The notes beneath the pieces are model-generated. The model did no database searches and was not told the origin of the DNA. It worked only from the letters and a program-made list of their open reading frames with translations. From Escherichia phage BF15, in sequence record MW822007.1: a DNA stretch of 64,000 nt. One strand, 5' to 3'. This document shows positions 23,241 through 25,421 of the stretch, piece after piece. The translations under genes and the position numbers were made by a program. Position 1 is the stretch's first letter, and every line of letters starts with the position of its first letter.

Positions 23241-23543
23241 TTATTTACCTTTAATTACTTTAGCTGCTTCGATAGCCGCTTGCTGAAGGTCATCCATAGA
23301 CATACCGAATTTAGAAGCAAAGTTATCAATTTTCTTTTCGACAGCATTCAAAGGCTTGGCCTGTTTACCTTCATTAGCGCCAGGAAGAGCGAGAATACGC
23401 TCTTTGTCAATATAAAGGCTTACAAGTTTCTTACGGTCTTTATCGGACAAATCATGAAATGAATGGGCCTTTTTATTTATAGCGGCTTCTAATTTACCTG
23501 CACTCACTCGCGCTTCAGTAATAAATTCTTGATATGTTTTCAT
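23241..23543 (-). CDS. ipII: internal protein (IPII-like) with capsid targeting sequence
   Basis: MKTYQEFITE-A leader with gp21-type cleavage motif; 100 aa. Confidence 0.7.
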   Translation of the reverse strand: MKTYQEFITEARVSAGKLEAAINKKAHSFHDLSDKDRKKLVSLYIDKERILALPGANEGKQAKPLNAVEKKIDNFASKFGMSMDDLQQAAIEAAKVIKGK

Positions 23544-23584
23544 ATGTTTCCTTTAAATGTAAATAGGTCTGAGTATTATCTTTA

Positions 23585-24163
23585 TTAGGAATTACGGGCT
23601 GCATTAGCAACGGCGTAAGCGTACTGGACATTAGCGTCTTTAAACGTACCTTTAGAGGTATCTATTTCTGCCTTAAAGCCGCCTTTAGCCATAACATCGG
23701 CAAATTCTTTACGGAAAGCCATTGCATCAAGACCTTTCCATGATGATTTATGCTTGGCAAATTCAAGACCAGCGTAGTTGACAGCCTTAGCTAATTTATT
23801 ATCAATAACCCATTTACCGGCTTTAGGCACAAACTTCGGGCCTTTTTGTTTAGAGAACAGTTTTAAATTCCAGCGACGAAGGTCACTGTCGGCTTTAACA
23901 AAAGCTGCGTCTAAGTTACTAGCAACAACATCTTCAATATGAGCAAATTTAAGTCCGTCAACTTCAATATTTAGATCGTTACGCCAGCGAAGTCCTTCCC
24001 AAGCGAAGGCTTTAAAGTCGGAAGCCTTTGTAGCTAAGTACCGTTCAATAGGAGCTGTTTTAGGGTCAAAGCCGTTTCCCGATCGGTAGGTCCACTCATC
24101 TTTATTAATGCCTTTGGCCTTTACTATAGAAGCTTCGGCAATAAATTCTTGATAGGTTTTCAT
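23585..24163 (-). CDS. ipIII: internal protein (IPIII-like) with capsid targeting sequence
   Basis: MKTYQEFIAE-A leader; 192 aa. Confidence 0.7.
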   Translation of the reverse strand: MKTYQEFIAEASIVKAKGINKDEWTYRSGNGFDPKTAPIERYLATKASDFKAFAWEGLRWRNDLNIEVDGLKFAHIEDVVASNLDAAFVKADSDLRRWNLKLFSKQKGPKFVPKAGKWVIDNKLAKAVNYAGLEFAKHKSSWKGLDAMAFRKEFADVMAKGGFKAEIDTSKGTFKDANVQYAYAVANAARNS

Positions 24164-24191
24164 GTGTTTCCTTGTTTGTTTTGATAGAGTA

Positions 24192-24221
24192 ATTATACCA
24201 TATTAATACTTAAGCGTAAAC
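24192..24221 (-). promoter_or_regulatory. early promoter (GTTTAC, 15 nt, TGGTATAAT)
   Basis: consensus match. Confidence 0.5.
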
Positions 24222-24224
24222 CGT

Positions 24225-24485
24225 TTAAGCTTTACCGCCAGAAATAATTCCGAAGTTGTTAAAATCATATCCAATATCGTCAACATCTACTTTAGGACTT
24301 GCTACAACATAAGCAATTTCACTACGTTTTGCACAGGTGTTGATTTCTTTACCATCGCCACCTAAGAAAGAATACCCATTACGTTTTAATGAGCCAAAGT
24401 CTTCCGCATCACCAATGAAAGCTTTAACTTTAAATTTAGAACCTTTGGCATCTGCTTCAACGATAAATTCTTGATACATTTTCAT
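24225..24485 (-). CDS. novel internal-protein-like gene with capsid targeting sequence
   Basis: MKMYQEFIVE-A leader; 86 aa, Gly-rich body. Confidence 0.6.
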   Translation of the reverse strand: MKMYQEFIVEADAKGSKFKVKAFIGDAEDFGSLKRNGYSFLGGDGKEINTCAKRSEIAYVVASPKVDVDDIGYDFNNFGIISGGKA

Positions 24486-24491
24486 TTTTCC

Positions 24492-24595
24492 TTAGTAAAT
24501 TGATTTACCAAAGTATTTGTACCAAGTCGGACGTTGATCAATTTTTTCATCTAAGCGTGCTTGATTTATCGCAATGGACGCTTCGGACGGGTCAT
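24492..24595 (-). pseudogene. denV: denV remnant: start codon and last ~33 codons joined out of frame
   Basis: GGAGG-N7-ATGACCCGT (MTR) then stop after 9 codons; in the +1 frame ...[30 protein letters not shown] matches the T4 endonuclease V C-terminus as recalled. Confidence 0.6.
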
Positions 24596-24621
24596 AATTT
24601 CCTCCAAGTAGTTGATGAATG

Positions 24622-24652
24622 TATAGTATCAAAACCCTTGGAGGAAGTAAAC
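24622..24652 (-). promoter_or_regulatory. early promoter (GTTTAC, 15 nt, TGATACTAT) of the denV remnant
   Basis: lies inside the N-terminal part of track ORF 24492-24689. Confidence 0.45.
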
Positions 24653-24654
24653 AA

Positions 24655-24936
24655 CTATTTTTCTGAAGCGCCTGAAATATATTTTTCAAGACGTTGTTTC
24701 ATCAGCGAGCCGTTCTTAGCGATTTCTTCCGGTTTATCGCACATACGCAACAAGGCTTCAAGCTTAACGATATCACTGGTGCGCTCAAATTTGCGAGTAT
24801 CTATCTTACTAGCAAGTTCAGAAATACGTGCTAATAGACTTTCAGCTTCAACCAAAGCTGCACCTAGCTTAGTTGCAAATGTGTCAGTAGCTTCGTTAAG
24901 AATAGATTCTGATAAAAATTCACTATATGTTTTCAT
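24655..24936 (-). CDS. novel internal-protein-like gene with capsid targeting sequence
   Basis: start trimmed to [11 protein letters not shown] leader; helical body. Confidence 0.55.
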
Positions 24937-25421
24937 ATATACGCTTTCCAAGTTCCTGTTTTAAATGTTGAGATTACGCGTTTCGCGCGATTAGGTGTCT
25001 GACGATACCATTTAGATTGGGCTAGATTTACTGCCGCTTCGTCCCAACGTTTCTGTTGAAGCATACGCAAAGAGTTAGTAAATCCTGCCACGCCAGTTTC
25101 TCCCATTTGGAAGACCATATTAATCAATGCACAGCGGCGAACAGCATCAAGAGAATTATAAACTGGTTTTAATTTAGCATTTCTCAGAATTCCGCGAACA
25201 GCAGCATCAACATCCTGATTAAAGAGTTTTTCAGCCTCATCTTTTGTAATTATGCCATTGCAATTACGCCCAATAGCTTTATCTAATTCAGATTTAGCAA
25301 CATTAAGTGATGGACTTTTTGTAAGCAAATGACCGATGCCAATAGTGTAATAGCCTTCTGTGTCTTTATAGATTTTAAGTCTAAGACCTTCATCTATACG
25401 TAACATTTCAAATATATTCAT
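24933..25421 (-). CDS. e: lysozyme (endolysin)
   Basis: 162 aa; [31 protein letters not shown], Glu11/Asp20/Thr26 context as in T4 lysozyme. Confidence 0.92.

Follow-up and report, generated by a model that had tools for sequence, protein, structure and literature searches.

Gene content and leaders of the e-to-vs.8 locus

The region between the lysozyme gene e and vs.8 of Escherichia phage BF15 (sequence record MW822007.1) carries four genes that begin with the leader of the T4 internal proteins (IPs). We examined this region within a stretch of 64,000 nucleotides of the record, hereafter the window. The original prediction, made from the letters of the window alone, had described the four as an expanded internal-protein cassette, and all four minus-strand open reading frames (ORFs), encoding proteins of 100, 192, 86 and 93 amino acids (aa), are found where it placed them (Table 1). 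Its coordinates hold for every ORF, except that the outer end at 24951 corresponds to an upstream TTG of the 93-aa ORF; the ATG start gives 24936. The resemblance of the 100-aa and 192-aa proteins to IPII and IPIII was also seen correctly, with the identities to the T4 proteins given in Table 1. The order of genes in the window is e-ip93-(denV remnant)-ip86-ipIII-ipII-vs.8, ip93 and ip86 standing for the 93-aa and 86-aa genes, whereas the order in T4 is e-ipIII-ipII-denV-vs.8. The layout thus differs from that of T4, as had been noticed, in that the window has two extra genes upstream of ipIII, and because denV lies between these two extra genes.

Experiments with T4 IPIII have shown that the first 10 residues are enough for packaging into the head; within the leader, residues 4 and 7 serve targeting and residues 8 and 10 serve processing, with the prohead protease gp21 cleaving after L/I-x-E (PMC9026906). 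The leaders of the window follow this scheme. The 100-aa protein starts with MKTYQEFITEA, the 192-aa protein with MKTYQEFIAEA and the 86-aa protein with MKMYQEFIVEA. The targeting residues Y4 and F7 are present in all four leaders, and so is the gp21 motif at residues 8-10, with a small residue next to it (ITE/A, IAE/A, IVE/A and LSE/S, the slash marking the cut), in agreement with the claim that the leader ends in the cleavage motif of the prohead protease. A six-frame scan of the window with the pattern M[KR]x[YF]x[ED][FWY][ILVM]x[ED] returned six matches, every one of them at the start of a minus-strand ORF. Because shuffled sequence gave a mean of only 0.003 matches (maximum 1, in 300 shuffles), the six matches are not due to chance. 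At the level of DNA, 42 nucleotides comprising the leader and the ribosome-binding-site sequence form a direct-repeat family of four copies (D1). Genes for gp21 and for the scaffolding core protein gp22 lie in the same window (Table 1).

Two more leader-bearing genes, overlooked in the original prediction, lie at the ipI locus beside 57B, at 31979-32287 and 32348-32620 on the minus strand, and both products begin with MKTFKEFINEA. One is Ip7 (96% identical to T2 Ip7), the other Ip9 (95.6% identical to RB32 Ip9). The ipI gene of T4 is not among the genes of the window, which encodes six internal proteins in all.

Table 1. Features of the e-to-vs.8 locus and the genes for gp21 and gp22, in positions of the window
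Feature	Position	Strand	Evidence and remarks
gene e (lysozyme), upstream boundary	24933..25421	-	94% identical to T4 e; Pfam Phage_lysozyme
T4 late-promoter consensus, two exact boxes (TATAAATA), immediately upstream of e	25435..25455	-	consensus match only
93-aa internal protein, Ip5-like	24655..24936	-	PHROG 3499 'internal head protein' 1e-46
PeSL-like element, downstream of ip93	24600..24652	-	boxes GTTTAC ... TACTAT in hairpin; RNA fold -20.7 kcal/mol, z = -3.33
denV pseudogene remnant	24492..24595	-	PHROG 1183 (endonuclease V C-terminus); 74% identical to T4 DenV residues 96-137
86-aa internal protein, leader MKMYQEFIVE/A	24225..24485	-	PHROG 2667 'internal head protein' 2e-19
sigma-70/T4-early-like promoter upstream of ipIII	24192..24220	-	TTTACG, 17-nt spacer, TATAAT, TG before it; 10/12 matches, consensus only
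ipIII orthologue, 192 aa	23585..24163	-	94% identical to T4 IPIII over 192 aa; PHROG 5341 1e-117
ipII orthologue, 100 aa	23241..23543	-	93% identical to T4 IPII over 100 aa; PHROG 7857 5e-55
second PeSL-like element, downstream of ipII, upstream of vs.8	23190..23246	-	RNA fold -20.3 kcal/mol, z = -3.45
vs.8 homologue, downstream boundary	22588..23127	-	98% identical to T4 Vs.8 residues 41-219
gp21 prohead protease	61609..62247	+	Pfam Peptidase_S77 1.5e-111; enzyme expected to remove leaders
gp22 scaffolding core protein	62278..63087	+	Pfam T4_CASP 1e-89; structure targeted by leader
PeSL, promoter-early-stem-loop.

Distribution of the locus and identity of the two extra proteins

In T4-type phages two variable IP loci have been described, one from e to vs.8 and the other from 57B to trna.4, and more than 30 IP variants were known already by 2007 (PMC2839356). 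The idea that the cassette of the window is an unrecognised expansion is not supported: the intact order e-ip93-denV-ip86-ipIII-ipII is found in at least 19 records (records covering the whole 1.9-kb query), and up to six leader genes occur elsewhere. At the e-locus there are no leader genes in T6 and Bas37, two in T4, three in 235Ecol030PP and in Lutter, which has a split 86-aa gene (L003 2947-3202), and four in the window phage, in JoYop and in Bas45, in which an Ip10-like gene takes the place of ipII. VR20 also has four, namely Ip5, Ip10, a member of the 86-aa family and Ip7, and phi25-307 has six. Since the number of leader genes at the locus varies from 0 to 6, the "expanded cassette" lies, judged by these genomes, in the middle of the range of a locus known to be hyperplastic. 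In T6, regB is found directly beside e (L011 495-1512), so the whole vs.3-vs.8/denV/ipII/ipIII block is absent, and Bas37 keeps denV and vs.8 with no ip gene at the e-locus (L014 2667-4323). These two phages represent empty states of the cassette site.

Beyond the leader, no similarity links the 86-aa and 93-aa proteins to IPI, IPII or IPIII, as had been stated. The further statement that their bodies are novel is contradicted by their membership in PHROG 2667 (86 aa) and PHROG 3499 (93 aa) and by their presence in 216 and about 232 phage records, respectively, and RefSeq already names both proteins 'internal head protein'. By family assignment all four proteins of the locus are catalogued, and the two extra ones have been present in sequenced genomes for years. 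Sequence searches with the 86-aa and 93-aa proteins against PDB, Pfam and NCBIfam returned nothing meaningful. The Ip numbering used here comes from GenBank annotations and secondary citations; in the annotations examined the 86-aa family bears no Ip number.

The 93-aa protein aligns with Ip5 of T2 and T6 over its full length (48% identity, 84 aa aligned, E 1e-21 to 7e-24) and is 89% identical to the product of the VR20 gene annotated ip5, a copy that likewise lies between e and denV. Given that Ip5 of T2, T6 and Bas37 is located at the ipI locus beside 57B, whereas the 93-aa gene adjoins e, the most fitting name for the latter is e-locus paralogue of Ip5. Its start overlaps the stop codon of e (ATGA). 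The protein is at least 95% identical, and in many cases 100% identical, in about 232 phage records, the ratio of nonsynonymous to synonymous substitution rates (dN/dS) ranges from 0 to 0.14, and dN is 0 in most pairs compared. The leader cut site at E10/S is followed by a second conserved site, LNE/A, at residue 15. The 93-aa protein and T2/T6 Ip5 share L/I-x-E at residues 13-15 (LNE in the former, ITE in the latter), 28-30 (LVE and LAE) and 38-40 (ISE and IKE); the site at residue 15 corresponds to the later cleavage site of the IPI/Ip5 type. The mature protein is near neutral, with an isoelectric point (pI) of about 6.3. Structure prediction had been proposed as a check for both bodies, and it gave no clue to their function. 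AlphaFold2 models the 93-aa protein as an all-helical bundle at a predicted local distance difference test score (pLDDT) of 72.7, and a Foldseek search with this model against PDB and BFVD gave no match at E <= 0.001. For the 86-aa protein (7-sequence alignment) the model, with a pLDDT of 45.8, was unusable.

The 86-aa protein occurs in phage records of the genera Tequatrovirus, Mosigvirus, Gaprivervirus and Gelderlandvirus, with one copy 100% identical to that of the window. It is 72% identical to VR7ORF127c, whose annotation points to a similarity with RB69 ORF125c, and to the VR20 copy; its identity to gp70.1 of Salmonella phage S16 is 68%. The window copy carries Y51C in common with phage 235Ecol030PP. 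Several annotations begin the gene at the second ATG (84 aa instead of 86 aa); because the MKM start is kept in every full-length Tequatrovirus and Mosigvirus copy aligned, the first ATG sets the canonical register of the leader. For the gene as a whole dN/dS is about 0.2 at dS 0.9-1.3. The mature protein has a pI of about 6.4 and no internal L/I-x-E site. Apart from one WG-repeat protein (P0019), an exhaustive phmmer search with the 86-aa protein returned nothing but relatives in phages and deletion derivatives. Residues ~21-59 resemble one unit of the WG-containing beta repeat in P0019, a protein of 417 aa. The phmmer value of 8.5e-8 is summed over 5 repeats, the best pairwise match is 46% over 39 aa, and the hhalign probability of 82% extends over 30 columns; Pfam WG_beta_rep (PF14903) did not match the 86-aa protein even at E <= 10. 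A WG-repeat unit is a possible origin of the 86-aa cargo, which we offer as a lead and not as a classification.

A denV remnant that had been overlooked lies between the two extra genes and shows up in ORF 24492-24689, which matches endonuclease V at its C-terminus. What is left of the gene is the start codon with two further codons, followed in another frame by the final ~40 codons, and the frame of the ATG reads MTRPKRPLR and then stops; the start codon and the ribosome-binding site of denV survive. Relative to JoYop, the lesion is a frameshifting deletion of 310 bp between the imperfect 13-nt repeats ACGGGACATAATT and ACGAGTCATAATT. The identical deletion is present in 235Ecol030PP, which is without ipII. 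Presumably, the phage lineage has lost excision repair of pyrimidine dimers. Going by decayed copies in relatives, the stretch 24225-24600 is prone to deletion: in some relatives an internal deletion fuses the leader to the last ~24 residues of the 86-aa protein (PHROG 35655), and in another the N-terminus of DenV is fused to the C-terminus of the 86-aa protein.

With a dead denV next to them, with truncated or fused versions of the 86-aa gene in other phages, and with gene callers in disagreement on its start codon, one or both extra genes might themselves be taken for relics in which the leader survives although the protein has ceased to be made, packaged or of use. We find this hardly credible. 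Both ORFs are intact and have Shine-Dalgarno sequences, dN/dS stays well below 1 even at the higher dS of the 86-aa comparisons (about 0.9-1.3), the MKM/MKT start together with Y4, F7, I8 and E10 is kept in every full-length copy, and the 93-aa gene is translationally coupled to e.

Proposed function of the extra internal proteins

Injected internal proteins are the first phage products met by the host. Ip1, Ip2 and Ip3 each inhibit one distinct type IV restriction enzyme of the GmrSD family, with no cross-protection (Silas et al. 2025, PMC12373910); the targets are GmrSD-CT596 for Ip1, GmrSD/BrxU-ECOR21 for Ip2 and GmrSD-ECOR17 for Ip3 (PMC12373910). IPIII is required on ECOR17 and functions there without its leader (Srikant et al.). 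A further leader-bearing protein, Bas37_0260, inhibits McrBC (preprint 10.1101/2025.11.20.689424); we find that it is Ip6, being 98.7% identical to T6 Ip6. Considered as a relative of the internal proteins of the window, Bas37_0260 was rejected, as it matched none of them. That new cargo on the same leader would be injected anti-defence, the view also taken in the original prediction, is long-standing in the field (PMC3012670, PMC2839356, PMC12373910).

We consider it likely that the locus is the known e-to-vs.8 IP locus of a T4-like Tevenvirinae phage with four cassettes, Ip5-like, RB69-ORF125c-like, IPIII and IPII, and that the two extra proteins are injected like IPII and IPIII, each neutralising a specific host nuclease. 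The functions of IPII and IPIII themselves can be transferred from their T4 orthologues on grounds of homology. In the proposed sequence of events, a leader of ~10 residues would carry each protein to the prohead and into its scaffolding core, made of gp22; gp21 would then cut after E10 and, in the 93-aa protein, probably after LNE15; the mature proteins would remain in the head and would be injected along with the DNA. By analogy with IPII and IPIII, we infer packaging and injection of the two extra proteins as well. Because all four Ip families with known targets block modification-dependent restriction, the two most likely act as injected inhibitors of further modification-dependent nucleases that attack modified T-even DNA. 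Purifying selection on both genes and the conservation of the leader across genera support this reading as a whole.

Several observations weigh against it. Structure and sequence searches assign no fold to either body. In comparison with Ip1, Ip2 and Ip3 only the leader aligns, a result that is still compatible with a similar function. With a pI of about 6.3-6.4, the mature forms of both extra proteins are close to neutral, in contrast to the basic IPI*, IPII, IPIII and Ip7. The almost invariant 93-aa protein is unlike the usual outcome of point-mutational arms races, and some relatives carry 86-aa genes decayed by frameshifts or internal deletions (P0011, P0018, P0012). Virion proteomics covering the two families was sought in the literature and none was found. 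Finally, when Ip4-10 were assayed against 15 GmrSD groups, no reproducible inhibition was seen (PMC12373910), and the sequences of ip4-10 are absent from the supplements of that study.

Because Ip4-10 gave no such inhibition, the Ip5 family is without a known target. The same result could mean that the two extra proteins do travel in the head and enter the host, but that type IV restriction is not what they act on; they would then be aimed at another defence system or at a target in host take-over. Their bodies share nothing with Ip1, Ip2, Ip3 and Ip6, their near-neutral charge is unlike that of the known inhibitors, and Alt, likewise a head protein processed at its leader, is an ADP-ribosyltransferase that plays a part against MazEF and Mokosh. 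We think this unlikely, as Ip1, Ip2, Ip3 and Ip6, the four families whose targets are known, all inhibit type IV restriction enzymes, and the diversity of GmrSD goes far beyond the 15 representatives tested. A related proposal, that the 93-aa protein, the 86-aa protein or both inhibit a non-GmrSD host defence, be it another modification-dependent nuclease or a non-restriction system, has in our judgement a small but real chance of being right. If so, the injected repertoire of first-response effectors would be wider than the four Ip families with known targets. In a variant reading, the Ip5 lineage would be cut at its internal L/I-x-E sites (residues 15, 30 and 40) and act as small injected peptides.

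The same L/I-x-E motifs, present in both Ip5 lineages, would also be expected in core proteins destined to be cut into peptides, and so bear on whether the extra proteins are accessories inside the head that help core assembly or the packing of DNA and play no part once injection has taken place. T4 mutants lacking IPIII or all three IPs form more polyheads, IPs co-purify with gp22, lysines of internal proteins contact DNA, and the strong conservation of the 93-aa protein would suit a structural part. Against this stand the sporadic distribution of the genes, as T4, T6 and Bas37 lack both and assemble normally, the frameshifted or deleted copies of the 86-aa gene in some relatives, and the near-neutral pI, which argues mildly against a role as DNA counter-ion. 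An accessory role of this kind therefore seems to us very unlikely, and we retain the injection of nuclease inhibitors as the preferred reading.

The four Ip families that act as specific inhibitors of type IV restriction shape the host range of T-even phages, therapeutic candidates included. The e-locus paralogue of Ip5 and the RB69-ORF125c-like family are widespread and well conserved, and are sensible candidates for the kind of screens that solved Ip2, Ip3 and Ip6. The plasticity of the IP locus and its anti-defence rationale have been described since 1994-2010, and no new family emerges from the window; its value is as a clear-cut case of the locus, in which four live cassettes stand beside a freshly killed denV.

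Transcription signals, repeats and comparison with known systems

The TATAAATA boxes are the likely source of late transcripts running into the 93-aa gene. Late co-expression of this gene with e is likely because of the ATGA overlap and because the gene lies downstream of the two late-promoter boxes, which are consensus matches only. The possibility that every ip gene has a canonical late promoter of its own directly before it was considered and rejected, since exact TATAAATA boxes occur only at e and the other genes have one-mismatch variants at best.

The two PeSL-like copies, each of ~55 nt with boxes GTTTAC ... TA(C/G)TAT, are direct repeats of each other (D3, D14), and both align with three T4 elements, those after e, ipIII and ipII. 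In each copy the Shine-Dalgarno sequence of the following gene is part of the hairpin, in its 3' arm; for the copy at 24600-24652 this gene is denV. An element upstream of ipIII is degenerate (z = -1.6), and RNA folding of the locus gave no PeSL-like element between ipIII and ipII. PeSL cassettes are described as substrates of modular shuffling (Arbiol et al. 2010, PMC2839356), and their T-even analogues at IP loci are credited to Repoila et al. 1994 (as cited in PMC2839356). Recombination at leader and PeSL-like repeats is the published explanation for such loci, and we infer that it applies here as well: the gene order would be unlike that of T4 because modules were exchanged at the repeated leader sequences and at the PeSL-like elements, and a later deletion, that of 310 bp, would have killed denV.

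Some further observations concern neighbouring genes and the second IP locus. A short ORF on the minus strand (23128-23185, start MDNSCATEW) comes after the PeSL-like element, upstream of vs.8; phi25-307 (L008 502-879) has a matching peptide, MDNSWAMEW..., annotated as the N-terminal extension of another leader-bearing gene. In T4, vs.8 is annotated with an N-terminus longer by 40 residues, an extension that is not conserved in the window. In the tRNA region, the minus-strand ORF 29672-30337 starts with an N-terminus of the GIY-YIG type (MFHYIYKITNKINNKIYIGAH...), and its resemblance is to a SegB-like homing endonuclease. At the ipI locus, the body of Ip9 (gene at 32348-32620; residues ~17-90, leader excluded) has homologues, 44-52% identical, in phages of ~43-58 kb, e.g. 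Kagunavirus and Bas70. This suggests that the cargo domain of Ip9 circulates outside T4-like phages and gained its leader on capture.

How does the locus compare with the systems already known? PeSLs of T4-type phages and the elements of the window both combine an early promoter with a hairpin, recur at module borders and end where the following gene begins, with its Shine-Dalgarno sequence and start. The PeSLs of RB49 and phi1 have polyG/polyC stems, whereas the elements of the window are AT-rich versions of the T4 early promoter without them, a difference noted for T-even IP loci in PMC2839356. The T4 locus resembles that of the window in its ipII and ipIII, which are direct orthologues, in identical or nearly identical leaders and in the same e-to-vs.8 neighbourhood. 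It differs in holding ipII and ipIII only, with denV downstream of ipII, whereas the window has two extra cassettes and a denV remnant between e and ipIII.

For the 93-aa protein the closest known counterpart is Ip5 of T2 and T6, to which it is linked by the full-length alignment and the conserved L/I-x-E positions; Ip5 differs in occupying the other IP locus (ipI) and in being basic, whereas the 93-aa protein is neutral, and the 93-aa protein has the 10-residue leader in addition to the later site of the Ip5/IPI type. The VR7/VR20 and S16 homologues of the 86-aa protein share both its leader and its locus, with no substantive difference. Ip1, Ip2, Ip3 and Ip6 are like the 86-aa and 93-aa proteins in the leader, in the two loci, in size class and in the logic of being packaged and injected, and differ from them in that their bodies have no sequence similarity to either.

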